From Bacteroidota bacterium (GTDB taxonomy: Bacteria; Bacteroidota; Ignavibacteria; Kapaibacteriales; UBA2268): a stretch of DNA of 58,002 bases. Made by a program: the position numbers and the translations under genes. The DNA lies in the NCBI GenBank assembly GCA_024278075.1, contig JAJRTW010000098.1, forward strand, positions 1 through 58,002. Reading direction: 5' to 3'. This document shows positions 5,435 through 45,082 of this stretch, piece after piece. Every line of letters begins with the position of its first letter. The stretch's first letter is position 1. The notes beneath the pieces were generated by a model. It worked only from the letters and a program-made list of their open reading frames with translations, did not search any database and was not told where the DNA came from.

Positions 5435-5707
5435 TTAATGATCGCAAACCCCTGCATCCGGCTGAAGGTTTTCGTGCTTGTGGAAAAAACGGAAATTATC
5501 GGGAACCTCATCGATTCCGCCCGGATGAAGCGGGTTGCATTTAACAATGCGCTTTGCCGAGAGCCACAGCCCTTTAGCAACGCCGAATTTTTTGATTGAT
5601 TAATAGGAATATTGCGAGCAAGTCGGGTAGAATCGGCATGATGGCTTAAGAAACGAGGATATAAGTTTCTTATATAATTTAATTAATATAAGCAGTATGG
5701 TTCTCAA
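5435..5707 (-). pseudogene. yidD: Membrane protein insertion efficiency factor YidD, interrupted by one in-frame TAA (5600-5602)
   Basis: Manual minus-strand translation gives (TTG)[70 protein letters not shown]...CDH*. YidD signature CRFxPTCSxY...G...G...RI.KCNPxxxGG is present on both sides of the stop. Canonical position between rnpA and yidC. Not in the ORF track because it is split below 60 aa. Confidence 0.75.
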
Positions 5708-6716: not shown

Positions 6717-9641
6717 CTACTTCGATATAATTAATTTCCTGATGGCCGTGCGGCCGCTGTCCCAACCAACGATCACCATATATACTCCCGTGGGCAGATT
6801 AGCATTTCCAAGCCCGATAGTGATTTCATTGCCCAATGCCGATTCATTGCCCAATGCCGCCCCGTTCATTTCCAACACATTCTCCCCTAATATCGAACTG
6901 ATTCTAATACTTCTGACAAACCAATCCGATTCACTATGCAGCTGAATTGTAATGAATTCGGAAGCCGGATTCGGGAATATGTACATATTGCCGCTTATAT
7001 CCGATTCAACAGAGGTTTGCCCTTCGCTAATCTTAATATCATCAATATACCACCCGTCATCAGACCTGAACGCATTGGAAGCAAACCGGAACCTGACCAT
7101 TACCGTATCCCCGGGATTGGTGCTAATCTGTATTTGCTCCCTTTTCCAATCCTCATTATCCAGCTGCCCGTTGGCCCAGGGCTGATAGGAATCCTTGTCG
7201 TAGAAAGCGGTTTTCTCCCATGTTAAGCCGTAGTCGCCGGATATTTCCACAATGGCGGAATCTTTCCCGGCTACGATTGCGGCATGCCAAAAGGAAAGGC
7301 TTAGCCTGCCGGTTGGGCTCGCAACGGGAAATATTTGCATTATATCCTTTTGCCGGTTCTTATAATTCCCGTCCGGTGATTCAGTGAGCGAATTCGGCGG
7401 GCTGTGGAAGAACTCGCCGGTGGCCTGAAAATATCCGGCAAATAAATAATTCGGCAAAGGCAGAATATCGAATTCCTCATCGAATGCGGATTCAATCACG
7501 CCCGTATATTCGATGGAATCATTGCTAATTTCGCTCTCCTGCGGCGGAATCTCAGTGCCTTCAAATTCGTCCGTTACTGTTGCATGCACTTTATAATATC
7601 CGCGCTCCGGCAATTGAATTACAAAACTCTTCACCTTGCCGGTGTCCGATTGAGATACTTCAAAAGATTCGAAGAATACATCATCCACAAAAATACTTAC
7701 CGACTTCAAACTAACGAGCGGTGTGACGTTATCGGCACGCAGGTTTGGCAGTTGCATACGGACATCCATCGTATTGACGGCATTGCCGCTCAGGCCTAAA
7801 ATCTCCGGCGGGGCGGGACGGCGGGCCCCTCCGGGATAAGCCGTAACTGTACGGGCTATGCTCGTATCATTATTGCCGGCAGCATAGATTTCATAAACAT
7901 ATTTCTCGAAAGCGGCAAGGCCATCGTCGGTATATTCGGAAATATCGCCGGACAAAACGTCAATCCGCTGGCCGTTTCTGAATAACAGCAGGGAAATATC
8001 ACCGGTATTTAATTGCCGGCCGAAAGTGCTTTCCAGCACCACATCCCAGCCAAGGCGGACTCGCTGCGGGAATTCGGGGAAAACCACGGACGTAAAATTC
8101 TCAACCGGCGAAGGCGCTTTGGTGTCGACGATTGCGGTATATACATCGCTGTCCGAAATATTATCAACGGCATAGCGCATATCAACCCAGGACGGATAAA
8201 TGATGCCATCGTAAAAGGCCATCCCGCTGTAATCCCCGGCAAAGCTGTTGCCCCGGAAAGGGTTCAGCCTTAAATCGCTTGCGAAATCGGCCGCCTGCCT
8301 GTCTGTCCATGTTTCGCCGCCGTCGCTCGAATAGCTTACCCAGCATTCGACCAGCAGGTTCTCCGCATCATTCCGGCTGTCGAAGTACATTATCCCCAAA
8401 TCGCCATTGGTTTGGTCTGTTGCCATCCACGGCCAGAACTGGTCATTGGTTGGGTCGGCACTCACTATAATCGGTTCCGACCAACTATCGCCGCCGTCGG
8501 CCGAGCGCGAGAAGAAAATATCAGGCGGATTGCCGGCGGCCCAGCATACATAGACATAGCCGTTACGCTGCCCGCCGCTAATATCGCAGGAAATGACGGG
8601 ATATGCTTCGGCCCGCACCTTGCCCTTGACCGTATGCTTGAAATTCGGCGGCTCGCCATCGCCGGATATATCTCTGGTTTCGCCGAAAATTTCATAGTTG
8701 TGAATTATTCGCGGGACGGAAAACGTGGCTCCGCCATCGGTGGATTTGGCATATCCCACGCCGTGTTCGATGCCGTGGTTCCATACGGCGTAGACATCTC
8801 CTTCCGGGCCGGTGGCCACAATCGGGAAGCTCTGGCCGAAGGTGGTGTCCTCGGTGCTGCCGGGCAATCTATTGCTAACGGCAACGGGGCTGCTCCAGGT
8901 GCTGCCTTTGTCGGTGGATTTGGACAGCATTATCTGTGTGGCGGAATCGCGCGGAGTCATCCTTTTCCAAGGAATATACAGGTGGTTTTTATAGGGCGAG
9001 AATTGGGAATTATCGACGCTGATGTAATATTTATCTTCGAAGCTGGAGTCCGGTGTCATCTCAGCCGTATGCTCAATTACGACGATATGCGGCTCCCACG
9101 TGGCCCCCTGGTCGGACGTCCGGGCCAAATAAATTCCATTACCCCGAACGAAATCGCTGCCAACCGGAAAAGCGCCATAGACGAGATAGCCGGTGCCGTC
9201 GGAATCGAACACTACCGACGGGTCGTTGCTGGACCGCCAGTTGGGGTGCGGCCTGCCAAGCCCGAGGTTCACCCACGACCTTCCGCCATCACTGGATACG
9301 TAAACATGCGCTTCTGAATTGCCGCGATAATCCACCGCCGAGGATATTAGATTCAGCGGGTTCACAGGATTAACCGCTATCGAGGATTCGTTCTGAATGG
9401 GCGATGAGCCTTCATCCTCCTCGATGGTATTTACATTTAGAAATTTGGGCAGCCGTGGCCCGGGTGCCATTGGGATGAAAAATCCTTTCTTCTGCTGATG
9501 CACAGGCGTCGGGTGGGCGGATTCCATCCATCTTTTATGCGCATCGCTTGCCTGCTTCTTTTCTGACAGCTTGGTTTCATCGCCAGAATAGAGGTTAGCA
9601 AACACGAAAGGAATCAGAAGGGCTAATTTCAAGTATTTCAT
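6717..9641 (-). CDS. Secreted BNR/sialidase-like beta-propeller protein with C-terminal T9SS sorting domain
   Basis: 974-aa ORF. Signal peptide. Six BNR (Asp-box) motifs (SSDGGRSW, TSDQGATW, STDKGSTW, STDGGATF, SADGGDSW, SSDGGETW). C-terminal YIFPNPASEFITIQL...GVYMVIV T9SS type-A CTD. Confidence 0.8.
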   Translation of the reverse strand: MKYLKLALLIPFVFANLYSGDETKLSEKKQASDAHKRWMESAHPTPVHQQKKGFFIPMAPGPRLPKFLNVNTIEEDEGSSPIQNESSIAVNPVNPLNLISSAVDYRGNSEAHVYVSSDGGRSWVNLGLGRPHPNWRSSNDPSVVFDSDGTGYLVYGAFPVGSDFVRGNGIYLARTSDQGATWEPHIVVIEHTAEMTPDSSFEDKYYISVDNSQFSPYKNHLYIPWKRMTPRDSATQIMLSKSTDKGSTWSSPVAVSNRLPGSTEDTTFGQSFPIVATGPEGDVYAVWNHGIEHGVGYAKSTDGGATFSVPRIIHNYEIFGETRDISGDGEPPNFKHTVKGKVRAEAYPVISCDISGGQRNGYVYVCWAAGNPPDIFFSRSADGGDSWSEPIIVSADPTNDQFWPWMATDQTNGDLGIMYFDSRNDAENLLVECWVSYSSDGGETWTDRQAADFASDLRLNPFRGNSFAGDYSGMAFYDGIIYPSWVDMRYAVDNISDSDVYTAIVDTKAPSPVENFTSVVFPEFPQRVRLGWDVVLESTFGRQLNTGDISLLLFRNGQRIDVLSGDISEYTDDGLAAFEKYVYEIYAAGNNDTSIARTVTAYPGGARRPAPPEILGLSGNAVNTMDVRMQLPNLRADNVTPLVSLKSVSIFVDDVFFESFEVSQSDTGKVKSFVIQLPERGYYKVHATVTDEFEGTEIPPQESEISNDSIEYTGVIESAFDEEFDILPLPNYLFAGYFQATGEFFHSPPNSLTESPDGNYKNRQKDIMQIFPVASPTGRLSLSFWHAAIVAGKDSAIVEISGDYGLTWEKTAFYDKDSYQPWANGQLDNEDWKREQIQISTNPGDTVMVRFRFASNAFRSDDGWYIDDIKISEGQTSVESDISGNMYIFPNPASEFITIQLHSESDWFVRSIRISSILGENVLEMNGAALGNESALGNEITIGLGNANLPTGVYMVIVGWDSGRTAIRKLIISK

Positions 9642-9917: not shown

Positions 9918-10475
9918 ATGTATTCGATAGACAATATTCTAATAGACGAAGCTATAGTAAGTTCTAATTTTACTTGCGATTTAGACAAATGCGGGGGTGC
10001 CTGCTGCACATTCCCGGGCGAATTCGGAGCCCCATTGCTCGACAGCGAAATTGAAATAATCGGCCGGAACCTCGATACGGTTTGGGAATATCTTGATGAT
10101 CGCTCCTTAGAAATCATAAATAGTAGCGGTTTTTACGAAGGTGAAAAAGGGTCACGCACAACTATGTGTATCGAAAAGAAGGACTGCGTGTTCGTTTATT
10201 TTCGGGGCAAGGTAGCAAAATGTGCCCTCGAGAAAGCATATTTCGATGGCAAATCCGAATTCAGAAAGCCATTGTCTTGCCATCTATTCCCGATAAGAGT
10301 TGCAAAATTTGGCAATGATTACCTTTATTATGAGAAAATCAGCGAATGTGCATCGGGAGTTAACACGGGCGATAAGAATCAGGTAAAGCTCTATACATTT
10401 CTGAAGGATGCAATAGTGCGTGCCGAAGGGGCGAATTGGTATATTAAGCTCGCTGAATTTGCCGGGAAAAAGTAA
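9918..10475 (+). CDS. DUF3109-family Cys-rich protein
   Basis: 185-aa ORF with CDLDKCGGACCTFPGEFGAPLLDSE and downstream Cys motifs, as remembered for DUF3109 proteins of Bacteroidota-type genomes. Confidence 0.65.
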   Translation: MYSIDNILIDEAIVSSNFTCDLDKCGGACCTFPGEFGAPLLDSEIEIIGRNLDTVWEYLDDRSLEIINSSGFYEGEKGSRTTMCIEKKDCVFVYFRGKVAKCALEKAYFDGKSEFRKPLSCHLFPIRVAKFGNDYLYYEKISECASGVNTGDKNQVKLYTFLKDAIVRAEGANWYIKLAEFAGKK

Positions 10476-10514
10476 GAACTAACGGCCAACGACTAAGAAC
10501 TAACGACCAGCGAT
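10473..10514 (+). repeat. 21-nt direct repeat x2 between DUF3109 stop and rpoN start
   Basis: TAAGAACTAACGGCCAACGAC / TAAGAACTAACGACCAGCGAT, adjacent. The first copy starts at the TAA stop of the upstream gene. Confidence 0.7.
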
Positions 10515-10532
10515 CTAAAGTTCGGGGAAAAA

Positions 10533-11576
10533 ATGAAATTATCTCTTGATTTAAGAGCGACTTTAACGCAGACTCTCACACCTCAGCAGATTCAATATTT
10601 GAAACTGCTGCAGCTTCCTCTTGTCCAGTTGGAACAGCACGTCCAGCAGGAAATTGAAGAAAATCCGATGCTCGACAACGAACAAGGCGAAGATGATGAA
10701 TTATTCGGAGAATTGGCCGATACCACAACCGAACCGGATGCTCTGGACCCAGCCGATGAATATATCGAATCTTCTGACATTGCCGAGCCGGAAAAACCAT
10801 CTGAATTGATCGACGACACTGCCGACCCTTTTGAGTTCCACAAACTTATCTGGGACGAAGGGCAGGAGTATCAATCCAAATCCAAATCTTCTCAGGGCAG
10901 CGACGATGGCGAAGGCTTCCAGATAAAGGATTCAATATCATTTATTGATGACCTGGTGCAGCAGCTGAGGATGCTCGAGCTTAGCCGGGAGGAATTTTTC
11001 CTGGGCGAAATAATAATCGGCAATATAGATAATGACGGATACCTAAGGCGCGACCTGGGCGAAATAGTTCAGGAGGCAAACGAATCCATCGCAGAGTATA
11101 ATTACGAAGTGAAGAAGAAATCGCTGGTAAGTCAATCCAATGGAAATTCGGATATTGAGGAGAATCCGGCAAGGTCATTCTTATTATCCAGCGAAAGTGC
11201 TGCGGCGTTGGGCAAAGTCCATGCGGCCAACCCCGAATTGCTTGCAAACCTGAGCGAGGAATCATTAAACGAACTCTCAAAATACCATGGCTATGGCGAA
11301 TCGGCTTTTATAGATCAATTATTAGATAATGTTGATATGAATATGGCCGAAAAGGTTCTTGGATTTATCCGCACGCTCGACCCGCCCGGAATCGGTTCCC
11401 GTGATATTCGCGAATGCCTGCTGGCGCAATGCAAGGCAATTGCCAAGCCCAATGCCGCCCGAAAACTTGCTATAAAAGTCCTCGAAGAGGCATACGAACC
11501 TTTTATAAAGAAGCATTACCATGTTATAACCAAGCAATTGGGAATTAGCGATGATTATCTGCGCGAAGCAATCTAA
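10533..11576 (+). CDS. rpoN: RNA polymerase sigma-54 factor, N-terminal part (region I, acidic region II, core-binding domain), ending at an in-frame TAA
   Basis: MKLSLDLRATLTQTLTPQQIQYLKLLQLPLVQLEQHVQQEIEENPMLD is the canonical sigma-54 region I. An acidic linker and core-binding domain follow (IIGNIDNDGYL...LDPPGIGSRDIRECLLAQ). Confidence 0.9.
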   Translation: MKLSLDLRATLTQTLTPQQIQYLKLLQLPLVQLEQHVQQEIEENPMLDNEQGEDDELFGELADTTTEPDALDPADEYIESSDIAEPEKPSELIDDTADPFEFHKLIWDEGQEYQSKSKSSQGSDDGEGFQIKDSISFIDDLVQQLRMLELSREEFFLGEIIIGNIDNDGYLRRDLGEIVQEANESIAEYNYEVKKKSLVSQSNGNSDIEENPARSFLLSSESAAALGKVHAANPELLANLSEESLNELSKYHGYGESAFIDQLLDNVDMNMAEKVLGFIRTLDPPGIGSRDIRECLLAQCKAIAKPNAARKLAIKVLEEAYEPFIKKHYHVITKQLGISDDYLREAI

Positions 11577-11627
11577 GTAATCCGCAGATTAAATCCCAAC
11601 CCGGGCAGTGGCAACTTCCAGCCGGAA

Positions 11628-12272
11628 ATGAATACGGTGATCCCGGATTTCTCGATTTTCAAGGATGAGGATTCGAATGACCTGATGATCTCGGTCAATG
11701 ACAGCCTGCTGCCGGTGCTGCACCTGAACAAAGCTTATGAAAAGCTGAAAAAAGAAACGGCTTATAAAAAATTTAATAAAGACACCCGAGACTGGGTGCG
11801 GAATAAATATGAAGATGCTAAATTCCTTATCCAGGCCATCAAGCAGCGAAAAAGCACTATGCTGAAAGTTATGACGGCTATTGCAGAATTGCAGAGGGAA
11901 TTCTTCTATAAAGGCCATCAAGCACTTAAACCGTTGATATATAAAAATGTTGCCGAAGAAACAGGCCTCGATATTTCCACAATCTGCCGCATTGTGAACC
12001 ACAAATATGTCCAGACCGAATTCGGGACTTATGACCTTAAATTCTTCTTCAGCGAGGCCCTCCCCTCCAACGACGGTGAGGAAATTGCTACAAGAGTTAT
12101 CAAGCAAAAGCTGAAGGAAATCATCGAAAAAGAACCTAAAAACAAGCCCTATAGTGATGACAAATTGTCTGCTTTACTCAAGGAAGCCGGATACCGCGTG
12201 GCCAGAAGAACAGTGGCGAAATACCGCGAGCAAATGAAAATCCCCGTTGCTCGTCTTCGCAAAGAACTATAA
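11628..12272 (+). CDS. rpoN: RNA polymerase sigma-54 factor, C-terminal part (ELH-HTH and RpoN box), same frame as the N-terminal part
   Basis: Contains RKSTMLKVMTAIAELQREFF, the HTH ETGLDISTICRIVNHKYVQT and the RpoN box ARRTVAKYREQMKIP. The 17 codons upstream of the first ATG (11577-11627, VIRRLNPNPGSGNFQPE) are also sigma-54-like and in frame. Confidence 0.9.
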   Translation: MNTVIPDFSIFKDEDSNDLMISVNDSLLPVLHLNKAYEKLKKETAYKKFNKDTRDWVRNKYEDAKFLIQAIKQRKSTMLKVMTAIAELQREFFYKGHQALKPLIYKNVAEETGLDISTICRIVNHKYVQTEFGTYDLKFFFSEALPSNDGEEIATRVIKQKLKEIIEKEPKNKPYSDDKLSALLKEAGYRVARRTVAKYREQMKIPVARLRKEL

Positions 12273-12298
12273 AGAAATTATTATTTTCCGCACCTATT

Positions 12299-13435
12299 GT
12301 GACTACAACCGAATTCATCTCGAAAATTGAAGCAAGGCTGCGGCCTTTTATAACGACTTTGCCCCCACTTTGGCTTGTCCGAATTTATTCCAATTCCCGC
12401 AGAATATTCATACGCCATTTGGTTAATGACCTGCCCGCAGAGCCAGTGCGCATCCCCGAGGCAAACAGAATAAAGCTGTGGGATATTGAATTTGGATGCG
12501 GCCTGTTCAACGCTGCCGGTATGTTCAAATATGGCGAGGGTTATGAGTTGTGTGCCATGCAGGGTGCCGGCGCTTATCTTGCCGGAACCACCACCTCGAA
12601 AAAGCGGAATGGCAACCGCAAAGATACACTCCACCCGTTTATCGCTTATCCGAATTCAGGTGCTGCATCTAATTGGATGGGCCTGCCAAACAAAGGCCAC
12701 TCGATTGTTGCCGGAAGATTGGCGAAAATCGAAAGGAAGCCTTTATGTCCGGTTGGTATCAGTGTTAGTGCCGACCCGGGCGAATCTAACTATGATACAC
12801 TAAAGAATCTAATCGCAGGTATGAATCAATATTACTTGGCCGGTGTTGATTTCATAGAGCTGAACGAAAGCTGCCCGAATGTGCCGGGGCACAAGCAATG
12901 TGACACAAACAACAAAAGCTGCCTTGAGGATGAATTAGTCGACAGGCTGGAATATATAAGTAATAATTTCCTGAGCAAAAGGGGCAGGAACCTGCCAGTT
13001 ATAATCAAGCTCTCCACCGGCACCGCACCAGAGCTGATACCTGCCATAATTGACATCCTAACCACATTGAAATTCGACGGCGTAAATTTCGGCAATACAT
13101 CAACAAAATACGAATATCATAAATCATCTATTACAGATGAGGAAAAGTGGCTGTTCGATTTTTTTGTGAAGAGATATGGCGGCGGCATTAGCGGCAGGCC
13201 GCTGAAGGAATCATCGCTAAATTTATCAAAAACAGCTGTTGAATATCTGAAATCACAATCCATCAGCAACGAATTCCATGTCATTCGCACCGGCGGTGTG
13301 GAATCACGGGCCGACCTGAAGGAATCATCAGACGCAGGTGTTCAGATGAATCAATGGTTCACCGGCTACTTCGACAATTTCTCCCGCTTTGGGCATAGGC
13401 TTTATTCGGAATTATTTAATAGCCACGTGCTTTAG
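12299..13435 (+). CDS. pyrD: Dihydroorotate dehydrogenase-like flavoenzyme (class 1-type Cys base, N-terminal extension)
   Basis: 378-aa ORF with GTG start. Motifs GLFNAAGMFKYGEG, IELNESCPNVPG (Cys catalytic base context), GGGISGRPL and IRTGGVESRADL typical of the DHODH/DHPD TIM-barrel family. Confidence 0.7.
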   Translation: MTTTEFISKIEARLRPFITTLPPLWLVRIYSNSRRIFIRHLVNDLPAEPVRIPEANRIKLWDIEFGCGLFNAAGMFKYGEGYELCAMQGAGAYLAGTTTSKKRNGNRKDTLHPFIAYPNSGAASNWMGLPNKGHSIVAGRLAKIERKPLCPVGISVSADPGESNYDTLKNLIAGMNQYYLAGVDFIELNESCPNVPGHKQCDTNNKSCLEDELVDRLEYISNNFLSKRGRNLPVIIKLSTGTAPELIPAIIDILTTLKFDGVNFGNTSTKYEYHKSSITDEEKWLFDFFVKRYGGGISGRPLKESSLNLSKTAVEYLKSQSISNEFHVIRTGGVESRADLKESSDAGVQMNQWFTGYFDNFSRFGHRLYSELFNSHVL

Positions 13436-13648: not shown

Positions 13649-14047
13649 TTAAGAGGACTGGCCTTTGGAATATTTATGCTGAATTCCGCACTTTTTGGCC
13701 AGCTCGGATTTCAGCTGTTCTTTTTGTTCATGCGTAAGGTTCTGAATAGTGTTAAGCGTCTCGTTTGCTGCCATATTGGCATTGTTCTGCATCTTTGGCA
13801 TATTGTCTTTTTGGCTGCTTGATATTTTATTTGATCCGAATTTAATACCATGATAGACGATATAGACAAAAGCAAAAACTCCGGCAGCTTCGAGCAGGCT
13901 AACCTCCGGCAATCCGAAATATTTGCACATGATTTCGTTGCAAAAGAATTCACAGCAGGCCGAAATCAAAAAAAACAGCCCGCTTACAAACAGTATGTAA
14001 AAAATAGAGCGGGCTGCTTTACTATTAAATATTTTGGAACTGAGCAT
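13649..14047 (-). CDS. Small two-TM Cys-rich membrane protein downstream of the ECF sigma factor (possible anti-sigma partner)
   Basis: 132-aa ORF 12 nt downstream of the sigma gene on the same strand. Two hydrophobic helices, ACCEFFCNEIMC cluster, polar C-tail. No family recognised. Confidence 0.5.
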   Translation of the reverse strand: MLSSKIFNSKAARSIFYILFVSGLFFLISACCEFFCNEIMCKYFGLPEVSLLEAAGVFAFVYIVYHGIKFGSNKISSSQKDNMPKMQNNANMAANETLNTIQNLTHEQKEQLKSELAKKCGIQHKYSKGQSS

Positions 14048-14059
14048 TTTCGAATCTAA

Positions 14060-14668
14060 TCAGTTTTCGTTTATTGACCTATACAGCTCCTTGAGACGCT
14101 TGCGCAGGTGCAATACCGCATATCTTTTGCGTGCAAGAAGAGTATTTATATTAACGCCCGTATCTTCGGACATCTCTCTAAACGAAATACCTTCGAATTC
14201 ATTTTTAACAAAAACTTCACGCTGCTCCGGCGGAAGCTCTTTCAGGCTGTCCTGCACTGACTCCCAGATGGTTTTACGAATTAAATCGCTTTCCGGGCTG
14301 GTGGATAAATCGCCAAGGAAATTCTCGAACGTATCCACACCGTCCTCGGCCTGGCTTGGCGTTTGCATATCCGAAAAAGTTTCGGCCCGTTTCTTTCTGT
14401 AAGAATCTATAATACGGTTGCGCACGGCAGTGAATACCCACGATGCGATATTTTCGATTGGCTTCTGCACGTTAGCCGATGCGGCCAATACATTGGTGAA
14501 AACATCCTGCAGGATGTCCTCGGCTTCTTCCTGGCTTCTGACGCGCTGGCGAATAAATCCGAGAAACTTCTTGCGGTCGGTGCGAAACAGATTTTCTATC
14601 TGAAGTGCTAAATCCATACTTAACCTCCCATTCGGTGCTTTAAAACCATTATTGATTTTTGATTTCAT
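14060..14668 (-). CDS. ECF-type RNA polymerase sigma-70 family factor
   Basis: 202-aa ORF. Region 2 (EEAEDILQDVFTNVL...WVFTAVRNRIIDSYRKK) and region 4 HTH (LPPEQREVFVKNEFEGISFREMSEDTGVNINTLLARKRYAVLHLRKRL). The start may be the internal Met 18. Confidence 0.85.
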   Translation of the reverse strand: MKSKINNGFKAPNGRLSMDLALQIENLFRTDRKKFLGFIRQRVRSQEEAEDILQDVFTNVLAASANVQKPIENIASWVFTAVRNRIIDSYRKKRAETFSDMQTPSQAEDGVDTFENFLGDLSTSPESDLIRKTIWESVQDSLKELPPEQREVFVKNEFEGISFREMSEDTGVNINTLLARKRYAVLHLRKRLKELYRSINEN

Positions 14669-23380: not shown

Positions 23381-24388
23381 ATGGTTACTATCAACATATT
23401 GAAAATCCCCTACAGCGGGATATTCCCGAAAGGGAAACTGGCATTCTTTTTTTTAATTACTGTCTGCTGCTGCCTAATAGCTTGCGGTGATGATAATAAT
23501 GTGACTTATTCTGATCCGTTCAAGGAGTATGAAGTTGGCAAGAATTGCTACACAATTAATATGGATGGCGACAGCCGGTATTATTGCGTCCACGCTCCGG
23601 GGGGATATAATATAAACACTCCCGCACCAGTAGTATTTATTCTTCACGGTTCGTCCGGCAACGGCGAGGAATTTTATAATAAATCAGGATGGAAGGAACT
23701 CGGCAATACTGAAAATATCCTGACGGTTTATCCCACAGCCTGGACATACTGCACTCTTGACGGCAAGAAGAAAAAAACGACTAAATGGAATGTATACTCT
23801 GGAGAGGAAGGCTTTTGTGCCGGAGAAACGCCACGGGATGATATTGGTTTTCTTAAGCAGATAGTAATAGAACTTAAGAAGAACTATAATGTTGACAGCA
23901 AAAGGATTTACGTCGCCGGATTCGGCAACGGAGGCGCCATGGCCGGGCGGTGCGCTGTTGAGATGAGTGATATATTTGCTGCTGTGGTGGAATCGGCAGG
24001 CACATTGCCGACAGACACTACCTTTGTTCCAATGAGAAAATTGCCGGTTACATTTCAAGTGGGCAATAAGGACAAAATGTGGTTTGGGGAGTATCCTTCC
24101 GGTATTCCAATGACATTATTCGATACATCGCTGGCCGGCCTTCCCACGCTTTGGGGCATTGCCCGGTCTCATACCAGCACATTTGGGCTGGATTCGACTT
24201 TTACCATGGCGGGAGATGTCAACACTATTATGACGGCAACCTTTGCAGCGACAACAACTTTCCGGCCGAGAGAATTCAGATTCGTATTAATAAAAGATTT
24301 AGGACATATTTATCCGAACGGAATAAATCATAAGATTAACGGAGCTAAATTGAATTGGCAATGGTTGAGGCAATTCGTATTGCCTTAA
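23381..24388 (+). CDS. PHB-depolymerase/LpqC-type esterase family paralog lacking the nucleophile serine
   Basis: 335-aa ORF, lipoprotein-like N-terminus (LIAC), HG oxyanion motif (FILHGSSGNG). The nucleophile elbow reads GFGNGG instead of G-x-S-x-G. About 50% identical to the next gene. Confidence 0.75.
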   Translation: MVTINILKIPYSGIFPKGKLAFFFLITVCCCLIACGDDNNVTYSDPFKEYEVGKNCYTINMDGDSRYYCVHAPGGYNINTPAPVVFILHGSSGNGEEFYNKSGWKELGNTENILTVYPTAWTYCTLDGKKKKTTKWNVYSGEEGFCAGETPRDDIGFLKQIVIELKKNYNVDSKRIYVAGFGNGGAMAGRCAVEMSDIFAAVVESAGTLPTDTTFVPMRKLPVTFQVGNKDKMWFGEYPSGIPMTLFDTSLAGLPTLWGIARSHTSTFGLDSTFTMAGDVNTIMTATFAATTTFRPREFRFVLIKDLGHIYPNGINHKINGAKLNWQWLRQFVLP

Positions 24389-24571: not shown

Positions 24572-25579
24572 ATGGCTATAATCAACAATATGAAAACATT
24601 TGGCAGCAGGATATTCCCGAAAAGTATATGTACTATCGTTTATCTCGCCGTCGCCTGTTGTTGCCTTTTGGCTTGCGAGGATGAAGATAAGGTGATAAAT
24701 CCCGATTCTACCTATGAATACGAAATTGGCAAGAATCACTTCACAATCGAATCAGGCGATACCACCAGGGAATATTATGTCCATGTTCCGGCAGGCTATG
24801 ATGCAAACGCACCCACACCCGTGGTATTTATGCTGCACGCTGCCACAGGAACCGGGGAAATGACCTATAACAATTCCGGTTGGAAAGGGGTGGGAGAAAA
24901 TGAAAATATTCTGACCGTCTTCCCCACTGCCCTGATTTATTGTTACGAAAAATCATCCGGAGGCACTAAAACCGATACCCGCTGGAATAGTCTGCCGGGT
25001 GTTGTTAACTTCTGTCAAGGTCAAACACTCAAAGATGATGTCAAATTTTTACGCCAGGTAGTAGCCGAACTACATAAACGGTTCAATGTGGATTCGCAAA
25101 GGATTTACATGGTTGGTTTTTCAAGTGGGGCGCAGATGAGTTTCAGATGCGCGGTTGAAATGAGCGATGTTCTTGCGGCCGTAGTGCAGTCCGGCGGCAC
25201 GCATCAGATTGACACGGTTTTTACGCCACAAAGGAATCTGCCCATTTCCTTTGAACTGGGAAATAGTGATGAAACCTGGTTTAAAAGCGGTTATCCTCCA
25301 TTGGCTTTATTTGATACTTTACTCACTAACTATCCCCTCTTTCAACGAATAATCGACGTTCACGCTAATTCATTCGGTTTCGAACGCACCTATACATTGA
25401 CAGGCGATACGAATTCGGTGCTTACTGCTACATTTAAAGCTATTCCTGAAGCCGGAAACCGGCAATTTAATTTTTCATTTATTAGTGGATTGGATCATTC
25501 CTACCCCAATGGTGTGAACCACCTGATGAAAGGAGCCGTTGTAGATTGGGAATGGTTGAATCAGTATTCATTGCCTTGA
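24572..25579 (+). CDS. PHB-depolymerase/LpqC-type esterase family protein (intact GFSSG nucleophile elbow)
   Basis: 335-aa ORF, LLAC lipobox, FMLHAATGTG, GFSSGAQM, conserved C-terminal LDHSYPNG His motif. Tandem paralog of 23381-24388, and the RBS context is duplicated too (CAAGGAG(A/T)ATCCTATGG). Confidence 0.8.
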   Translation: MAIINNMKTFGSRIFPKSICTIVYLAVACCCLLACEDEDKVINPDSTYEYEIGKNHFTIESGDTTREYYVHVPAGYDANAPTPVVFMLHAATGTGEMTYNNSGWKGVGENENILTVFPTALIYCYEKSSGGTKTDTRWNSLPGVVNFCQGQTLKDDVKFLRQVVAELHKRFNVDSQRIYMVGFSSGAQMSFRCAVEMSDVLAAVVQSGGTHQIDTVFTPQRNLPISFELGNSDETWFKSGYPPLALFDTLLTNYPLFQRIIDVHANSFGFERTYTLTGDTNSVLTATFKAIPEAGNRQFNFSFISGLDHSYPNGVNHLMKGAVVDWEWLNQYSLP

Positions 25580-29802: not shown

Positions 29803-32800
29803 ATGCAACGATTGTTTCGTTTAAGTTTATTTGTGGTACTAATGGCGGTCATCGCAATTTGCGATGTATCTGCACAATTGCCACAAGCCTTTATTTCAGG
29901 GCGTGTTGCACCAGGTGCAGTCAGGATCTTGCAAAAAGATACGGTCTATATTATCAATAATGATTACGTTATTGGTGGAACATTGATCATCGAGCCCGGA
30001 ACCGATATTTACTTCTACGATAACGGTAGATTAATCGACTCGGTTGGCGGCAGGATAATTGCCGATGGCGATGCCTATGCTAATTATACGGCTAATCCCG
30101 ATGGCATCAACCCAATTGCTACTCCCGGTTCGCCAGCGAATCCGAATGGGTTCTCGGGCTATGCAGACCTGGATTATTTTCTTTATTCCGGCGGGCAGAG
30201 CACAGTTACCGCAGGTACGACCCGCGATTTGACGGTCCACCCGGATAAATACGATTATCTCTTCAATGTAAAGATTCAAAAATCCACAAGAAGAATAGTC
30301 GACCTTCAGTATCCGGGTACAATCGGACTTCCGATGAATCCGGATGAAGTAACTATTCCGTTCGAGCAGGCTGTTATGTTCCAGGCCGCACGCCTGCAGA
30401 ACGACCCTGCTAATGATATTAACCTTAATATCAGGCCATGGCAAAGAATTGGCGGGGAAGATGTAGACCTCGAGAGCCAGACTATTCGCTTTTACGGGCA
30501 ATCGGTGAATCCGATTTCACGCGAATGGGGACATATCATTATATTGCCTGGCGCAAGAGCAGCTTTCTTCAGAAATTGCTTGTTTGATAATTTCCGCAAG
30601 GATGTTACCGTTGACCGTTTCCCGATTTATGATGAAAATGCTCCTGGTGCGGATTGGTCTGCAATCAATACGAGAATGCTTATGCTGACAAATGGTGCCG
30701 GCGGTGCTATTTCCACATTCTCTTCCAGGACATGGTTGCTGGATTGTGAATTTACAAATAATATGGCACGCCATCGCGGTGGTGCCCTTCAATTATTGCA
30801 GACTCCGATGGGATTCCCGAAAGTTGATATAAGCAGCCTCGGTTATTATCCATCCAACAAAAACCCAAATATTACGAATAGTGATGGCAGTACATCATCT
30901 ATTATAACCGGCAACCCTATTCCGTTTATCGACAATATCGACGGCTCGGGAATTACGGAGCCATTGTCGGATTACGACCGCCAGGCTTATGATGATGGCC
31001 GCCTGGCATCATATTTGGGGCGTATGAGAAACCTTAGATTTACGAATAACTATACGCAAATCGCTAATATTATGTTCAAACAAATCGGTCCGATTAGAGT
31101 TGTGACCGATGATACGGACAATCCTGCGGATTTCCCACTTGAATACGGAGACGGTGCCTATGGCGGTGCTATCTATATTTCAGGTGCCGAAGGCGATGAA
31201 GACAGATCCATTGAAATAGGACTTGGTGTTAATCATTCATTATTAATCAATGGTTCTATTGTTAACTTCCCTGACTTTGATACGTTCGAGGCAGCGGGGA
31301 ACAAGGCCAATAATTATCAAAGTGCAATGAGCACACCGGGTGCGCGTGGCGGTGCTATTTATGTTGGCAGATATACTTCATTAATAGTAGCCGGCAGTTT
31401 TAATTCGAATGAGACTTATACAAAGTTTTTGCAGGATGACCAGACCGGTTCCAATAGCGGATATTACTCGATGGGCGGCGGAATCTATGCCGAAAACACA
31501 TTAGGCCGTTTGCAGGTAAGGGGCGGCCCAAGCAGAGAAAATTATAACAACGAAACAGAATTTATTGGCAACAAAGCCGGCGCCGGCGGTGCTATATTTG
31601 TTGATGGCAATACGGACCCATCTCCATCGCCAATTATTGGCGGCTCGGATGCCACGGTTCAGATTCGTAACTATGGTTATGGAATTTTATTCCAGGACAA
31701 CGAAGCCGCATCTTTTGGCGGTGCTCTTTACTCGAAAAGGCAGTTCACAATTAACGGCGCCGGTGGCGTAGAAGCCGGACAGTTGATGGGATATGGCGGT
31801 AAATACCCCGTTAGATTCCTTGGCAATATGGCTGGCTACAGCGGTGGAGCCATTACTGTTAACCTGCCGAACGGGAATTCTATCCCGGCTATCCAAAGAT
31901 CATTGCAAATTGTGCGTGCATCATTCCGCGACAATGTGGTCGGGCTTGATATTGCAGATTTAAACAAACCCGAAATAAGGGGTGGTGGCGCAATTTACAC
32001 ATTGAACGGTGATCTTGCTGTTGTAAAAGGTGTTGAGTTTATTGATAACACCGTATATAATGGTAACGGTGGAGCAGTTGCTATGGTTCATCCGGAATCA
32101 TCAGCCGAACGTTTCTTCTTGTCGGACCTTGACGTTGTTGTCAATGATCCCGCTACAGGAGTACCAACCGGGTTTGTTTCAACCGATGGCCCGTTTACTT
32201 ATGATGAAAACGTTACATATCCTGCCGATACCAGAATGCTAACAAGATTTATTGGCAACGAAATTATCGTTGACCAGGATATACTTGATTCGCAAAGCGG
32301 AACTGGCACTACTCAGCAGGGCCAGGGTACATTCAGAACTTCAGCATTGCTTCACGGTACATCGTGGCTGAACAATGATGTTGGCTTTGCCGTTGGTTAC
32401 GACGGTACGATTATTAAATTCACACAGGGCGGCAGCCGTTGGGAATATCAGACTTCCGGCACACGTTACAGATTGACAAGTGTGGAATTTGTAAGTAATG
32501 ATATTGGATTTGTTGGCGGCGACAGAGGCATTATTCTTAAAACTACCGATGGCGGCAGAAACTGGAATATGATGAATACGCCAACAGTAAACCAAGTGAA
32601 CGACATAGTATTTATCGGAACCAATCTTGGTTTTGCCGCATGTGACAACGGCACAATCCTTATGACATCAGACGCTGGTAATACATGGACAGGCACACAG
32701 CCCGAATCCGGCGACCTGCATGGTGTTTTCTTTGTTAATTCAACAACCGGCTTCGCAGTTGGCGAAAGAGGTTTGATTATCAAGACAACCGATGGCGGTG

Positions 32801-35800
32801 CTAATTGGTCGGTTCAATTTGTTCCCGGCCTGAACACAGGCCTTAACCATGTTAACTTTATCAGTGCCGATATAGGCTTTATCGCTGGTAATGGCGGCGT
32901 GTTTGTTAAAACAGTAGACGGCGGCGACAACTGGGAAGTAATTGACGCCGGTGTTAATTATGACTTGCAGTCATCTTACTTTACAAATCAAAGTATCGGC
33001 TACGTGGTTGGTAATTTTGGTGTTGCATTGAAAACCGAAGATGGCGGCGACACATGGACAGCATTGGACCCGAATTCCAATTACAGCTTTTACGATGTAT
33101 TTTTCCCATCAACTAACAATGGGTTTATGGTTGGTGATTGGGGAACAATGCTTGGCACAACTGATGCCGGAGCAACATGGTCGGAAGTGAAGCCGGGCGA
33201 CGAAAGCCTGGTGGATGTAGTTAGATATCATCAGGAAATGAGATTGCCCGAAAATGGCGTCGGCCTGGGTGGTGCTATATATATATTAGATAGTGTTACG
33301 GTGAACAGAGTAAACCGTGTGGATTCCGTTAGGTTTAACCGCGTTAGAATCCAGGATAACCGAGCTTTCACCGGTGCTGCAATTTATTCAGACAACTTTG
33401 ACCTTAAGTTGATTTTTAATAAATCATTGATTACAAACAATGTGGCGTGGTCGACAATTGGCGAAGAACAGAATGCAATCGGAGGGCCGGTGCGATATGA
33501 TTCCAGTGGGAATATATCACATAACTATGCATCGTCAGACCTTGCCGGCGCAATTATTTATGGTGAGATTCAAGGCCCGTTGCCATCCCACTTATTCTCA
33601 GTTGCAGCCAATTCAATATATGACAATGAGGCCAGGTTCCTGATTAGGCTGCCGGACGCACCAAACACTAAAGGTGTGCTTGCCGGCCAGCTTGGCATCG
33701 GATTTGGCGGTACTGATACATTACGCGGTAATTACTGGGGACGAACAGAAGCTAATGTTAACCTTCTTGTTGAAAATGTTCCGGGCCGCTTGAATGTTAT
33801 TAACGAAACATTCTTCCTTGCCGGCGATGGAGAATCGCACCTGACTTATGAATACAATCCGGCTGACCCAACTCAGCAGGGGCCGTTTGAATTCAATGCA
33901 GGCTATGCTTATAATCCGGTTCCATTATTAAATGATGCCGATGAAAACACAGCCGATCCGCTAAGTATACCTGAGAAACTGTTGATGTCAGGTAATATAT
34001 ATGATATGTATGACAAGGGAACAGATATAAAAACAGCAGATTATTCAAAACGCAGAATGACTCCGATCGAAGATTTCTCAGTTGGCATTCCGCCTATGCT
34101 GAGAAGATTTGATGATATGGACTTCCCGTCGAATGGCAAATATGTCAGACGTTGGGTAAGAGATCCTTTCAGTGTTGAAGCAACTGACGATAGTGGCGCA
34201 CTGTTATATCCATTCATGACAGATCTGCAGGATGAATACAGAAAGAACGAAGATGGCGATTTTTATCATCCTATAGGATATCCGCTATATCTTGAAACAC
34301 ATGCCGATTACGACGGCTTGGTGGAAAGAAGCAACCACGATCAAGTTGCTTTGAACGAATCTGTATTCTTTATTATTAATGAAACAACAAGCGATTATAT
34401 AAGAGTAAACCTAAGGCAGTTCGACGAAAATGCTCCGAACAGAGAAATATTCAGAGTTAGGGCCGAATTAGTGCCGGATTCATCGCAAAGGAATCCGAAC
34501 ACTACATTCCGCCGTACAACCGAAGGACTGTTAAACCTCGGTTCGGGTTCGAACCTTCTTGGCAAACTTGCCGATGATGCTATGACAGAAGACCAAGCAA
34601 CATTGCAGGGACGCAAATACGAAGCATCTTCTTCGTCATTTGCCACAGTTCCACAATTATTCTCGAATAGGGAATTCCCAACCGGGAATAACAATATGGC
34701 AACATTCTTTGCCGGCGAGCGGTTCCGCGCACTGCCGGTCAATGTTGGAGATAATGTGAGAATTATTTCTCGTACTGTTCTATGGAGTGAAGGCGTTGTG
34801 CCTGCTTATGACGACGGCATATCATTCAGGGTTGTCGAATCAACCGAACCCCCTGTATTTACCGGAAATATTGTTTCGCTGTCAAGTGATGTCGATACTG
34901 TTTATGTTCCTTCGCAATATCCGTGGAAGAGAGAATTGGGACTGCTTGATACTATTATCAAAACAGAATTCCTAAACAGAATATGGGTTACCGAAGACAG
35001 GCGATATCCCGTGGCACCGGGTGTATACAGTGTTAGCCTGGGTGATGAGGCCGGACGTGACTCTATCCTTACGGTAACTGCTATTGACTCTAATAGTTTC
35101 TACGATCCGAGAGCAATATTGACTCCGGATGATTATGCTAAATTAACTTATACATGGAGAGTAGCGCCAAGCTCAGGCTTGAGATGGTGGCTGCAGGCAG
35201 ACCAGGTTAAAGCAGGGTCTACCCAATGGCAGAACCCTCGTGACGACGCCGAAGGTTACTTGATGTTCCGCGGTATACCAACGAATCCTTATGTTGTTCC
35301 GGGCGGCGAGATTGTGGAAGTTGGCGTTAGCAACTATCCTCCGCATTGGAGAACAGTTGATATTCTCAGGGACGCAAACGTTGACCAAGATGATATAGAT
35401 CAATTAGTTGAGATATTCCCATCATATTTCAATGCCGAAACCTATGATAATGAAGATGCAAGATATGTCCAGCAGGATACTATCGACTTCGGTTCGAACT
35501 TTACTAAAGAATATCAGTTTGAATTATTCGTTGTTGACGATCTTCCGAGAATACTTGAAGACGGCGACGAAGAAGTGGTTTCCCGCTATGATAGCGATGG
35601 CAATCCAATTGGCACAGTTGTTGAATACGTTCCTTCGATATACAAATGCGATAGAACAGATGACGGCAGATTGATTGCTAACCTTACGGACAAACTTCGC
35701 TTCCAAATGGATTTGAATACCGATGACGAACTGGAAGATGAGGCGGCGGAAAACAATTGGGACTTCCGTTTCGGAAGGACGTCCTACGGCTTCCAGAATG

Positions 35801-37743
35801 TAATCAATAATGGCGGCGACATTGTTGTTATCGATACTGCTTATGTTTATGACGAAGATGGCAATATCGTAGGCTATGTTAATCAATCAAGGCCAATCTG
35901 GATGCAGGCCGAGTATCTTGCCACTTATGATGGTGATGAACAAGGCTCGGATGCATTAGGCGTTGACTTTACAACCCGCGGACAGTTGAATATTAGAATT
36001 GACGCTGCCGAAGCTATGAGCATACTAACTCCGGACGGCCAGGCAAATAGCGCACTGAACACGGATACTACATTTAATATAGTAGTCAACGACGGCCATG
36101 GTGGCATGATAGTTAGAAACTTTGGTGTGTTTGTCAATGTTGCTCCGGTTATTATAACCGAATCATTGCCAGCGGCCAAAGAGGATTTTGACTATAACCT
36201 GAGAGACGGCCAAAACCTGCTTGATTCTAATAAAATGATTAAGATATTTGACCCGAACTTCGGACAGTCACATCTATTTGAATTGATTTATTCGGATTAT
36301 CCGGATGATGAAATCCCGAAAGATCCTTGCTATGAAGAAGCAGGAGTATGGGATGTATCAAATATGAAGACTACACCGGATTGGCTGAAAATAAATACCG
36401 AGAGCGGCCTGCTGTATGGAACTCCGAGAGTTACCGATGCGCCGAAAGACGAAATGGTGACAGTCCTTGTTACCGATGAAGACGGCCTGACGGTTGTTAA
36501 GCAGTTCGAGCTAAGGGTTGACTCCATTAACCATATACCAAGAATAGCTGCTATTCCTGAAGTTAAATGTGTTGATTTAGGCGGCGATTATATGGATACG
36601 CTAATTGTAGTTGACCATGACTTGCTCAGGCTTGACCCTGAAGTAGAAGAAGTTACAATTACAATAGAAAGCCCGGAAAACACAAGCCTGACTATCGAGC
36701 CAAGTACATTAACAGGGACTGCAATTAAAGATTCGATTCCTGTAATAATCTACTCCGACGGGCCGTTTACAGGAACACGCGATAATGATGGCAGGATTAC
36801 CATAATAGTCAGAGTCGACGACGGCGAGGCTTTCACCGACTTTACATTCAGGTTGAGAGTTTCCGATTCAACGAACTTTATCAGCACAATCAGGGTTGAA
36901 AACAGCATCGGTGCTTTTGAAGAACTTCAGTGGGGAACGGGCAATCATCCGGTAACAACTGGTGATGGCACTGACTTACTTGACAAAGGGCTGTTAGACG
37001 CAAATTATTGCGAATATGAATTGCCGCCACTTCCCACAAATGATGTCTTCGATGCAAGATGGACTATACCACTGAAAAATGGTATTGACCGGAGCGTATA
37101 TCCTACCGCACCATCACCGGGCAGGGCACAAAGATATCGCGGCAGCATTCAGGCCGGTGGTGTATCCGGCGGCGGATCTGCCTACTATCCGGTTACATTA
37201 TCCTGGGACAACATGGAAGTTCCGGATATGAATGATACCGAAAGCAATCCGAATGGAAGCACTTGGTACTTACGCGACCTTGCCTCCGACGGCGGATTGT
37301 TCAACATAAACATGAGAACCGGCGAAGGCCATTTCACAAGTGGTAATATTGAAGTGAACCAAAACGGTGATCAAACAGAAGTTATAATTCTGAGTAGTGA
37401 TATAGAGGCCTTTGTAATTTGGCGAGACCTGGAATCATCTACTCCGAAGGGTTACAATAATTCATTTGAAACAAATATTGTGTCAGTGAGCCCGAATCCA
37501 GTTGGAAGGTATGCACAGATCAATTATGAATTAGCACAAGCAAATGATGTAGCAATTGACATAGTAGATGTTCTTGGCAATGTTGTTAAGAGCATCGTAG
37601 GTGAATTCAAAATGTCAGGCCAACACTCAGCCCAATGGGATGGAGCAGATTTCTATGGCAGGCCATTATCAAATGGTGCATACATGGTGCGCATGACAGT
37701 CGGTGGATTTACATTTACTTATCCTATTGCAATTGTTAAATAA
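29803..37743 (+). CDS. Giant (2646 aa) multi-domain T9SS-secreted surface protein
   Basis: Signal peptide MQRLFRLSLFVVLMAVIAICDVSAQ. Many GGAIY/GGALY/GGAIT motifs typical of Pmp-type right-handed beta-helix repeats. Seven BNR/Ycf48-like blades (FTQGGSRW, TTDGGRNW, TSDAGNTW, TTDGGANW, TVDGGDNW, TEDGGDTW, TTDAGATW; about 32380-33200). Dystroglycan/cadherin-type Ig-like segment (TPDWLKINTESGLLYGTP). C-terminal T9SS CTD (VSVSPNPVGRYAQINYEL...GAYMVRMTVGGF). Confidence 0.85.
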   Translation: MQRLFRLSLFVVLMAVIAICDVSAQLPQAFISGRVAPGAVRILQKDTVYIINNDYVIGGTLIIEPGTDIYFYDNGRLIDSVGGRIIADGDAYANYTANPDGINPIATPGSPANPNGFSGYADLDYFLYSGGQSTVTAGTTRDLTVHPDKYDYLFNVKIQKSTRRIVDLQYPGTIGLPMNPDEVTIPFEQAVMFQAARLQNDPANDINLNIRPWQRIGGEDVDLESQTIRFYGQSVNPISREWGHIIILPGARAAFFRNCLFDNFRKDVTVDRFPIYDENAPGADWSAINTRMLMLTNGAGGAISTFSSRTWLLDCEFTNNMARHRGGALQLLQTPMGFPKVDISSLGYYPSNKNPNITNSDGSTSSIITGNPIPFIDNIDGSGITEPLSDYDRQAYDDGRLASYLGRMRNLRFTNNYTQIANIMFKQIGPIRVVTDDTDNPADFPLEYGDGAYGGAIYISGAEGDEDRSIEIGLGVNHSLLINGSIVNFPDFDTFEAAGNKANNYQSAMSTPGARGGAIYVGRYTSLIVAGSFNSNETYTKFLQDDQTGSNSGYYSMGGGIYAENTLGRLQVRGGPSRENYNNETEFIGNKAGAGGAIFVDGNTDPSPSPIIGGSDATVQIRNYGYGILFQDNEAASFGGALYSKRQFTINGAGGVEAGQLMGYGGKYPVRFLGNMAGYSGGAITVNLPNGNSIPAIQRSLQIVRASFRDNVVGLDIADLNKPEIRGGGAIYTLNGDLAVVKGVEFIDNTVYNGNGGAVAMVHPESSAERFFLSDLDVVVNDPATGVPTGFVSTDGPFTYDENVTYPADTRMLTRFIGNEIIVDQDILDSQSGTGTTQQGQGTFRTSALLHGTSWLNNDVGFAVGYDGTIIKFTQGGSRWEYQTSGTRYRLTSVEFVSNDIGFVGGDRGIILKTTDGGRNWNMMNTPTVNQVNDIVFIGTNLGFAACDNGTILMTSDAGNTWTGTQPESGDLHGVFFVNSTTGFAVGERGLIIKTTDGGANWSVQFVPGLNTGLNHVNFISADIGFIAGNGGVFVKTVDGGDNWEVIDAGVNYDLQSSYFTNQSIGYVVGNFGVALKTEDGGDTWTALDPNSNYSFYDVFFPSTNNGFMVGDWGTMLGTTDAGATWSEVKPGDESLVDVVRYHQEMRLPENGVGLGGAIYILDSVTVNRVNRVDSVRFNRVRIQDNRAFTGAAIYSDNFDLKLIFNKSLITNNVAWSTIGEEQNAIGGPVRYDSSGNISHNYASSDLAGAIIYGEIQGPLPSHLFSVAANSIYDNEARFLIRLPDAPNTKGVLAGQLGIGFGGTDTLRGNYWGRTEANVNLLVENVPGRLNVINETFFLAGDGESHLTYEYNPADPTQQGPFEFNAGYAYNPVPLLNDADENTADPLSIPEKLLMSGNIYDMYDKGTDIKTADYSKRRMTPIEDFSVGIPPMLRRFDDMDFPSNGKYVRRWVRDPFSVEATDDSGALLYPFMTDLQDEYRKNEDGDFYHPIGYPLYLETHADYDGLVERSNHDQVALNESVFFIINETTSDYIRVNLRQFDENAPNREIFRVRAELVPDSSQRNPNTTFRRTTEGLLNLGSGSNLLGKLADDAMTEDQATLQGRKYEASSSSFATVPQLFSNREFPTGNNNMATFFAGERFRALPVNVGDNVRIISRTVLWSEGVVPAYDDGISFRVVESTEPPVFTGNIVSLSSDVDTVYVPSQYPWKRELGLLDTIIKTEFLNRIWVTEDRRYPVAPGVYSVSLGDEAGRDSILTVTAIDSNSFYDPRAILTPDDYAKLTYTWRVAPSSGLRWWLQADQVKAGSTQWQNPRDDAEGYLMFRGIPTNPYVVPGGEIVEVGVSNYPPHWRTVDILRDANVDQDDIDQLVEIFPSYFNAETYDNEDARYVQQDTIDFGSNFTKEYQFELFVVDDLPRILEDGDEEVVSRYDSDGNPIGTVVEYVPSIYKCDRTDDGRLIANLTDKLRFQMDLNTDDELEDEAAENNWDFRFGRTSYGFQNVINNGGDIVVIDTAYVYDEDGNIVGYVNQSRPIWMQAEYLATYDGDEQGSDALGVDFTTRGQLNIRIDAAEAMSILTPDGQANSALNTDTTFNIVVNDGHGGMIVRNFGVFVNVAPVIITESLPAAKEDFDYNLRDGQNLLDSNKMIKIFDPNFGQSHLFELIYSDYPDDEIPKDPCYEEAGVWDVSNMKTTPDWLKINTESGLLYGTPRVTDAPKDEMVTVLVTDEDGLTVVKQFELRVDSINHIPRIAAIPEVKCVDLGGDYMDTLIVVDHDLLRLDPEVEEVTITIESPENTSLTIEPSTLTGTAIKDSIPVIIYSDGPFTGTRDNDGRITIIVRVDDGEAFTDFTFRLRVSDSTNFISTIRVENSIGAFEELQWGTGNHPVTTGDGTDLLDKGLLDANYCEYELPPLPTNDVFDARWTIPLKNGIDRSVYPTAPSPGRAQRYRGSIQAGGVSGGGSAYYPVTLSWDNMEVPDMNDTESNPNGSTWYLRDLASDGGLFNINMRTGEGHFTSGNIEVNQNGDQTEVIILSSDIEAFVIWRDLESSTPKGYNNSFETNIVSVSPNPVGRYAQINYELAQANDVAIDIVDVLGNVVKSIVGEFKMSGQHSAQWDGADFYGRPLSNGAYMVRMTVGGFTFTYPIAIVK

Positions 37744-44284: not shown

Positions 44285-45082
44285 ATGAGAATTATTGCAA
44301 CAGTATTAACAATATTAACAATATTAGCATTCTTTACGTATCAAAGCCCGGCGCAGGAAACCATTAGAATTGGCCTTATGATAACCACCGAAGCAAATGA
44401 ACGATTTGACAACATTGTCTTCGGCACCGATCAAAGAGCAACATTAGGCCTTGACACAGAATTGGGAGAGAGAGATTATCCGGGATGGCCCTGGAATTCA
44501 CTCCATGCCTTTGTGGTCGTAGTTGATCCGCAAACCAATGAAGAGTATTATTCTTACAAGAATTTCAAGCCCTTCCCGGAGGATACCAATAAGTTCTATG
44601 CCGAATATGGGCTTACGGTTAACCCGTATATAGGAGAAAATATAACCGTTACATGGGGCATCTTGCCTGCCGCGATAGACTCGGCATATTTTACAAAGCC
44701 CTATCCTACGGGCGACCTTTTTTCAATCAATATGAAAGAAAACAAGTCATATACATATAATTACATGGATTATGGCAAACCGACTAAAACCCTTTTCAAA
44801 GTGTGGTTCTCCAGGGATATTAATAATATTGACGAAGCCACAGGTGCAAATGGAACCATATCACTATACCCGAATCCGGCCGCCGATGTTCTGACACTGC
44901 GGAATATACGGGATAAATCAAGATATACGATTTATAACATACTTGGCGAAGTGGCAAAGCAGGGTTTGCTTGGCCAGAAGATTAGCCAAATCAATATTCA
45001 AAATTTTCAAGCCGGCTATTATTATATTAAGATAGCCGATAATTACGGAAATCAACTAAATAGAAGTTTTCTAAAGAAATAA
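44285..45082 (+). CDS. Small T9SS cargo protein of unknown function
   Basis: 265-aa ORF with signal peptide. C-terminal ISLYPNPAADVLTLRNI...YTIYNILGEV...GYYYIKI T9SS CTD. Confidence 0.75.
   Translation: MRIIATVLTILTILAFFTYQSPAQETIRIGLMITTEANERFDNIVFGTDQRATLGLDTELGERDYPGWPWNSLHAFVVVVDPQTNEEYYSYKNFKPFPEDTNKFYAEYGLTVNPYIGENITVTWGILPAAIDSAYFTKPYPTGDLFSINMKENKSYTYNYMDYGKPTKTLFKVWFSRDINNIDEATGANGTISLYPNPAADVLTLRNIRDKSRYTIYNILGEVAKQGLLGQKISQINIQNFQAGYYYIKIADNYGNQLNRSFLKK

Follow-up and report, generated by a model that had tools for sequence, protein, structure and literature searches.

The sigma-54 gene (rpoN) located in the window, that is, the whole stretch of 58,002 nucleotides analysed here, carries a TAA codon within its reading frame, and the sequence beyond this codon continues to encode sigma-54. 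How did a stop codon come to stand there, and is it still read as a stop? The preliminary description offered four candidate explanations without choosing among them (an assembly or base-call error, a very recent nonsense mutation, a naturally split sigma-54 and programmed read-through), and it leaned to recoding. The results given below favour the recent nonsense mutation and the base-call error, and disfavour the natural split and the read-through.

Structure of the interrupted rpoN gene

The two open reading frames that make up rpoN, 10533–11576 (347 amino acids) and 11628–12272 (214 amino acids), lie in the same frame with an offset of 1095 nt, which corresponds to 365 codons. Every coordinate in the preliminary description was verified on this point. 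The gene is composed as follows.

10533–12272, plus strand: rpoN (sigma-54); 579 sense codons and one internal TAA, with the natural TAA at the end; the Pfam domains AID, CBD and DBD occur in this order
10533–11573, plus strand: part before the stop; 347 codons comprising region I (activator-interacting), the acidic region II and CBD profile positions 50–132
11574–11576, plus strand: in-frame TAA, at which a conserved acidic codon is lost; the equivalent residue is N251 of E. coli sigma-54
11577–11627, plus strand: conserved 17-codon segment VIRRLNPNPGSGNFQPE, containing no in-frame ATG, GTG or TTG
11628–12272, plus strand: part from the first ATG; 214 codons, in which the CBD profile ends and the DNA-binding domain follows with its RpoN box (ARRTVAKYR)

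Conceptual read-through of the TAA gives ...ISDDYLREAI*VIRRLNPNPGSGNFQPEMNTVIPDF.... In the Pfam comparison, Sigma54_AID (PF00309) matches residues 4–48 (E = 1.7e-13), and Sigma54_DBD (PF04552) matches the part downstream of the TAA (E about 7e-54 to 9e-54). The match to Sigma54_CBD (PF04963) runs from profile position 50 to 132 upstream of the TAA and from 134 to 185 downstream of it; just one codon (CBD position 133) is therefore replaced by the TAA, with neither insertion nor deletion. It was thus confirmed that this TAA is the sole interruption of one sigma-54 gene, whose domains are colinear. The RpoN box is visible in the translation and aligns with that of the E. coli sigma-54 of solved structures. 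The read-through protein as a whole also aligns with E. coli sigma-54 in the solved holoenzyme structures, and the TAA was mapped via chain 9mse_M. Accordingly, region I, the core-binding domain and the DNA-binding domain with the RpoN box are all found, the core-binding domain being cut at profile position 133, and the only feature of a sigma-54 gene that is missing is one uninterrupted reading frame. The TAA is present in the deposited public contig.

Upstream of rpoN, a tandem direct repeat occurs at 10473–10518 of the window (21-nt unit, 2.1 copies, 88% match, consensus TAAGAACTAACGACCAACGATC). The repeat extends from the DUF3109 stop codon to a point 15 nt ahead of the rpoN start, and may serve in the regulation of rpoN. 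Another sigma factor gene, of the ECF-type sigma-70 class (regions 2 and 4), is located on the minus strand at 14060–14668. It is followed by an ORF of 132 residues (13649–14047, minus strand), which has no Pfam match and is located where an anti-sigma factor would be expected.

Homologues of rpoN and selection across the stop

A homologue search with the rpoN read-through protein gave 2,829 matches, and the best 120 of these were considered. They consist of 119 full-length single sigma-54 proteins and one exception, which is the 347-aa fragment of the window itself. The names attached to them are those of Kapabacteria, Kapaibacterium, Ignavibacteria or Bacteroidetes MAG proteins, and the read-through protein covers 100% of the 119 full-length homologues. 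The preliminary description had proposed an alignment with rpoN of the closest genomes, and in this alignment the residue under the stop was Glu or Asp almost throughout: among the 119 homologues (from the best 120 of 2,829), the column contains E in 62, D in 56 and N in one. In 132 more distant loci, the column is occupied by D, E, N, A or Q, and a stop is found in none of them. The closest relative (protein P0001, locus L081; 88% identity in amino acids and 84% in nucleotides) carries GAG. This GAG points to GAA, which is one step from TAA.

The closest sequence found anywhere is a 1.9-kb contig with 88% amino acid identity, while the best identities to the rpoN protein were 53% in the metagenome scan and 66% in the genome scan. 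Exact-protein look-ups with both rpoN ORFs (N- and C-terminal) and with the adjacent DUF3109 gene gave no second assembly of the same species. The relatives L001, L002, L005 and L025 were deposited as 'uncultured Hyphomicrobiales bacterium', and their sigma-54 groups with Kapabacteria and Ignavibacteria; these co-assembly MAG records thus seem to have been given the wrong taxonomic label.

The sequence on the far side of the stop shows no sign of decay. The 17 codons directly following the TAA, which had been described as conserved sigma-54 sequence, indeed encode residues of which 16 are identical to those of P0001, and the DNA differences there consist of seven synonymous codon differences. 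At the 197 rpoN columns conserved at 90% or more, four deviations were found, and all four are common to P0001; none is specific to the window. The substitution rates in the comparison of rpoN with L081 are given below.

Upstream of the stop: dN/dS 0.14, dS 0.77
231 codons after the stop (11577–12269): dN/dS 0.022, dS 0.88
17 codons directly after the stop: dN/dS 0.021, dS 1.21

When the amino acid changes downstream of the stop were polarised with outgroups, two were derived in the window and two in the relative. If this part of the gene had been free of selection over the whole branch, about 230 non-synonymous changes would be expected by our estimate. Since the derived changes are few compared with this number, we put the age of the rpoN stop at under some 5% of the branch. 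The undamaged state of rpoN is compatible with a mutation of very recent date, with an error, or with read-through of the stop; it is at odds with an old pseudogene and with a settled split into two genes.

These results bear directly on the idea of a naturally split sigma-54, in which the 347-residue piece and a C-terminal piece started at the ATG at 11628 would associate and work together. Two long ORFs with intact domains are certainly present, and isolated sigma-54 fragments are able, in vitro, to bind core polymerase (the N-terminal part) or DNA (the C-terminal part). The break, however, lies inside the Pfam CBD model, at position 133 of 185. The first start codon is found not right after the break but 17 codons downstream, so that its use drops the conserved segment. 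In the promoter and terminator scan of 10300–12500, whose hits were at chance level, no promoter-like site was found ahead of the ATG at 11628 on the plus strand. The split is not conserved in relatives either, 119 of the best 120 matches (of 2,829) being single full-length proteins, and the 17 codons remain under purifying selection, unlike what a settled split would leave. The expectation that a clean split into two genes would not preserve these codons was thus sound, and such a split is not the pattern observed. A restart at 11628 would lose 17 conserved residues, and no signal for it is visible. A working two-piece sigma-54 is unlikely, and among all the explanations weighed here we consider the natural split the most improbable.

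A second interrupted gene and the decoding of TAA in the window

The preliminary description also pointed to yidD, about 6 kb away, as having the same kind of in-frame TAA. This TAA was found at 5600–5602 on the minus strand.

5435–5707, minus strand: yidD; 90 codons, TTG start at 5707, in-frame TAA at 5600–5602, natural TAA at 5435–5437

The Pfam match to YidD (PF01809) after the in-frame TAA covers profile positions 37–67 of 67. On the same strand, rnpA (PF00825) is located upstream and yidC (PF02096) downstream, so that the order rnpA-yidD-yidC is retained, and the TTG start of yidD overlaps the TGA stop of rnpA (TTGA, window 5704–5707). Among the 37 homologues aligned across the yidD stop, the column contains E in 27, Q in six, D in two and L in two. 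Glu is found in L001 and L029, and the closest relative (locus L162, 66% amino acid identity) has CAA (Gln). The yidD TAA could thus have arisen from CAA, by a transition, or from GAA. Because of the CAA in the closest relative, the two stops need not share the mutation type or the original amino acid; this weakens a shared rule of TAA for Glu, and the suggestion of one common cause for both stops was not supported. The simplest explanation of the yidD TAA is that yidD, likewise dispensable, underwent a nonsense substitution of its own.

If TAA were a sense codon in this organism, it should be rare as a terminator and should occur many times in frame. In the 36 genes of the window, TAA is instead the terminator of 19, TGA that of nine and TAG that of eight, and internal stops are restricted to the two in rpoN and yidD, in 16,259 codons. 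After TAA, the next in-frame stop follows at a median of 10 codons, just as it does after TGA, and an enrichment of backup stops is therefore not seen. A tblastn comparison of the six-frame window with 161 related loci revealed no further stops inside clean conserved alignments. In the codon-usage scan for stops flanked by coding sequence, which is weak for short genes, the rpoN stop stood out; a higher-scoring site at 13117 (minus strand) was set aside as being antisense to the gene at 12299–13435. In the other 34 genes, neither frameshifts nor truncations were found, and each gene that has a Pfam match (27 of the 34) is covered essentially over its whole length.

The plus-strand gene at 29803–37743 of the window encodes a protein of 2,646 residues with BNR/YCF48-like repeats, Chlamydia PMP repeats, Ig-like domains and a weak match to a C-terminal sorting domain. 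Clear Por_Secre_tail domains (type IX secretion sorting) are found in the proteins encoded at 6717–9641 (minus strand), 40949–44113 (plus strand) and 44285–45082 (plus strand), and together with the 2,646-residue protein these three make up a cluster of proteins that are probably secreted or surface cargo. Directly downstream of a polysaccharide-lyase gene, two adjacent genes on the plus strand (23381–24388 and 24572–25579) each encode an alpha/beta-hydrolase of 335 residues (esterase or dienelactone-hydrolase-like); they are probably tandem paralogues.

Programmed read-through would leave other traces, namely, a stop conserved in relatives and a structure or element downstream of it. Neither was found: neither column contains a stop in any relative, no stimulatory RNA structure was detected when the 96 nt around each stop were folded and compared with shuffled sequence (z = +0.73 for rpoN and −1.11 for yidD), and there was no Rfam match after the rpoN or the yidD stop. 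The base after TAA is G in rpoN and T in yidD, and in E. coli, a G or T following UAA gives efficient termination. The window encodes a single tRNA, Arg-CCG, and no suppressor tRNA. The two contexts are, as claimed, ATC TAA GTA ATC in rpoN and TAT TAA TCA ATC in yidD, and they have four downstream bases in common. The proposal that TAA-NNA-ATC is a signal was not borne out, as the window contains 16 copies of TAANNAATC and 22 of GAANNAATC, and the ATC after both stops is merely the codon for an Ile two residues on, which the homologues also have.

Other ways of passing the stops were rejected. A frameshift bypass of the rpoN TAA does not apply, since it is frame 0 that encodes the conserved continuation of the protein, and reading in +1 meets a TAA one codon later, after AAG. 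Selenocysteine and pyrrolysine are inapplicable to TAA. A-to-I editing of TAA in mRNA leads to Trp or another stop, and not to Glu or Gln.

Taken together, wholesale reassignment of TAA on this contig is excluded, and programmed read-through has no support. What can be said for translation of the stops, by an ochre-suppressor tRNA or by usefully efficient read-through of some TAA codons, with full-length sigma-54 and YidD still made, is that both genes are otherwise intact with strong constraint on either side of the stop, that both stops are TAA and fall in columns in which Glu occurs more often than any other residue, with the four shared downstream bases noted above, and that two such stops per 36 genes exceed expectation. 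Against it stand the predominance of TAA as the terminator, the presence of merely two internal TAA codons, the efficiently terminating following bases, the ordinary nature of the context, and the Gln, not Glu, in the closest yidD relative, as well as the findings on relatives, structures and tRNA described above. To our knowledge, decoding of TAA as a sense codon has not been described in any bacterium. The literature retrieved on bacterial stop-codon reassignment with TAA consisted of papers on phages and giant viruses, and TAG or TGA is the codon given in those abstracts that name a reassigned one. The leaning to recoding was thus not sustained, and we regard translation of the two stops as improbable. 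It is distinctly improbable as well that the organism decodes an occasional in-frame TAA, either by a natural ochre-suppressor tRNA that inserts Glu or Gln or by read-through that depends on context, with TAA still its main terminator; what speaks for this are weak coincidences.

Origin of the stops and comparison with known systems

The explanation that we prefer, with a probability of roughly 0.55, is that the rpoN TAA is a real and recent nonsense substitution (GAA to TAA) producing a nascent pseudogene, and that yidD has undergone an independent nonsense substitution. A single G-to-T change at the first codon position would have converted GAA (Glu) to TAA at 11574–11576, very recently, in the lineage or population behind the assembled contig. 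The product as written would be a fragment of 347 residues comprising region I, region II and the larger part of the core-binding domain. With neither helix-turn-helix nor RpoN box, this fragment would be unable to direct binding to promoters. From the domain map and established knowledge of sigma-54, sigma-54-dependent promoters would then go unrecognised and the truncated sigma-54 is presumably non-functional, so that rpoN here would be a fresh loss-of-function allele.

Such an event is not exceptional in kind. GAA outnumbers every other codon from which a single substitution leads to a stop (684 of 16,259 codons, about 11% of the single-step routes to a stop), and the change from GAA to TAA is therefore among the likeliest single nonsense events. 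In most bacteria studied, both rpoN and yidD are dispensable. Loss of rpoN function appears readily under selection, one example being Campylobacter in experimental evolution (PMC7677240). In the related public loci, rpoN was found to be broken by a stop or frameshift in three of 161: L044 and L108 have frameshifts, and in L100 a TAA interrupts the frame at position 10019, close to where the match begins. These three could be errors or pseudogenes; in data of this kind, broken copies are thus not rare and are met at the percent level.

Some observations stand against a real loss. Two nonsense codons in 36 genes, within 6 kb of each other, exceed what is typical of a free-living genome, and this is the single feature that is still slightly odd. 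The zero decay of rpoN is equally expected under translation through the stop. In addition, rpoN is intact in every relative among the best 120 of 2,829 matches, and its loss would thus be unusual for the group.

The other explanation to be weighed seriously is an error of the consensus, sequencing or assembly, in which the organism has GAA at 11574–11576, the T is a wrong base, and rpoN and yidD are both intact. The perfect state of the rest of rpoN is what a truly intact gene would show, two stops within 6 kb may mark a locally poorly supported stretch, and some of the three broken public rpoN loci are probably errors. Coding-strand G-to-T changes are a known type of artefact from oxidative damage, and if the ancestral yidD codon was GAA, both changes are of this type. 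The yidD stop, however, may be a C-to-T change from CAA, which would leave no common type of error. About 8% of the G:C-to-T:A changes in these genes make a stop, so that two stops imply about 25 errors, and none of these is found at the conserved rpoN columns. A methylation- or motif-linked base-call error at GAANNAATC was rejected in view of the motif counts given above, and no systematic error of this kind is visible. Furthermore, the absence of frameshifts and of other truncated genes in the 16,259 codons indicates a consensus of good quality, and a contig of 58 kb implies reasonable coverage. For these reasons, together with the dispensability of both genes, a real allele is favoured over an error, and we judge the error to be possible but rather unlikely, although the sequence evidence assembled here fits both.

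The consequences differ among the explanations. If the allele is real, sigma-54-dependent regulation was lost very recently in a lineage that is uncultured and Kapabacteria-like and whose relatives all retain the gene; this is of local interest. If it is an error, caution is needed in the annotation of this contig, where rpoN and yidD would be miscalled as fragments or pseudogenes. In the unlikely case that TAA is decoded, the importance would be broad, a natural sense reading of TAA being, as far as we know, new to bacteria.

Comparison with known systems places the locus among these possibilities. The sigK gene of Bacillus subtilis, which is split by the skin element, resembles rpoN here in that a sigma factor gene is present as two ORFs. 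In the present case, however, there is no inserted element; one codon is changed, and excision is unneeded. Reassignment of stop codons is known as TGA to Trp or Gly in some bacteria, and as TAG to Gln or TGA to Trp in some phages; we know of no bacterial reassignment of TAA. The likeness lies in the in-frame stops at conserved sense positions of housekeeping genes, and the difference is that the codon here is TAA, the main terminator (19 of 36 genes), with 2 of 16,259 codons affected. Programmed read-through and suppressor tRNAs share with this locus the purifying selection on in-frame sequence beyond the stop; unlike those systems, the stop here is found in no relative, neither a structure nor a leaky context accompanies it, and the contig carries no suppressor tRNA. 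The closest likeness is to an ordinary ochre mutation or nascent pseudogene, as in the rpoN alleles of evolving populations, in which one base change turns GAA into TAA in a gene that is colinear and undamaged elsewhere. The present case differs from it in the second nonsense codon 6 kb away in yidD, and in that the allele here is a probable one. The rpoN stop is an ordinary kind of event, a single nonsense substitution in a gene that is otherwise intact, with another such substitution in yidD.
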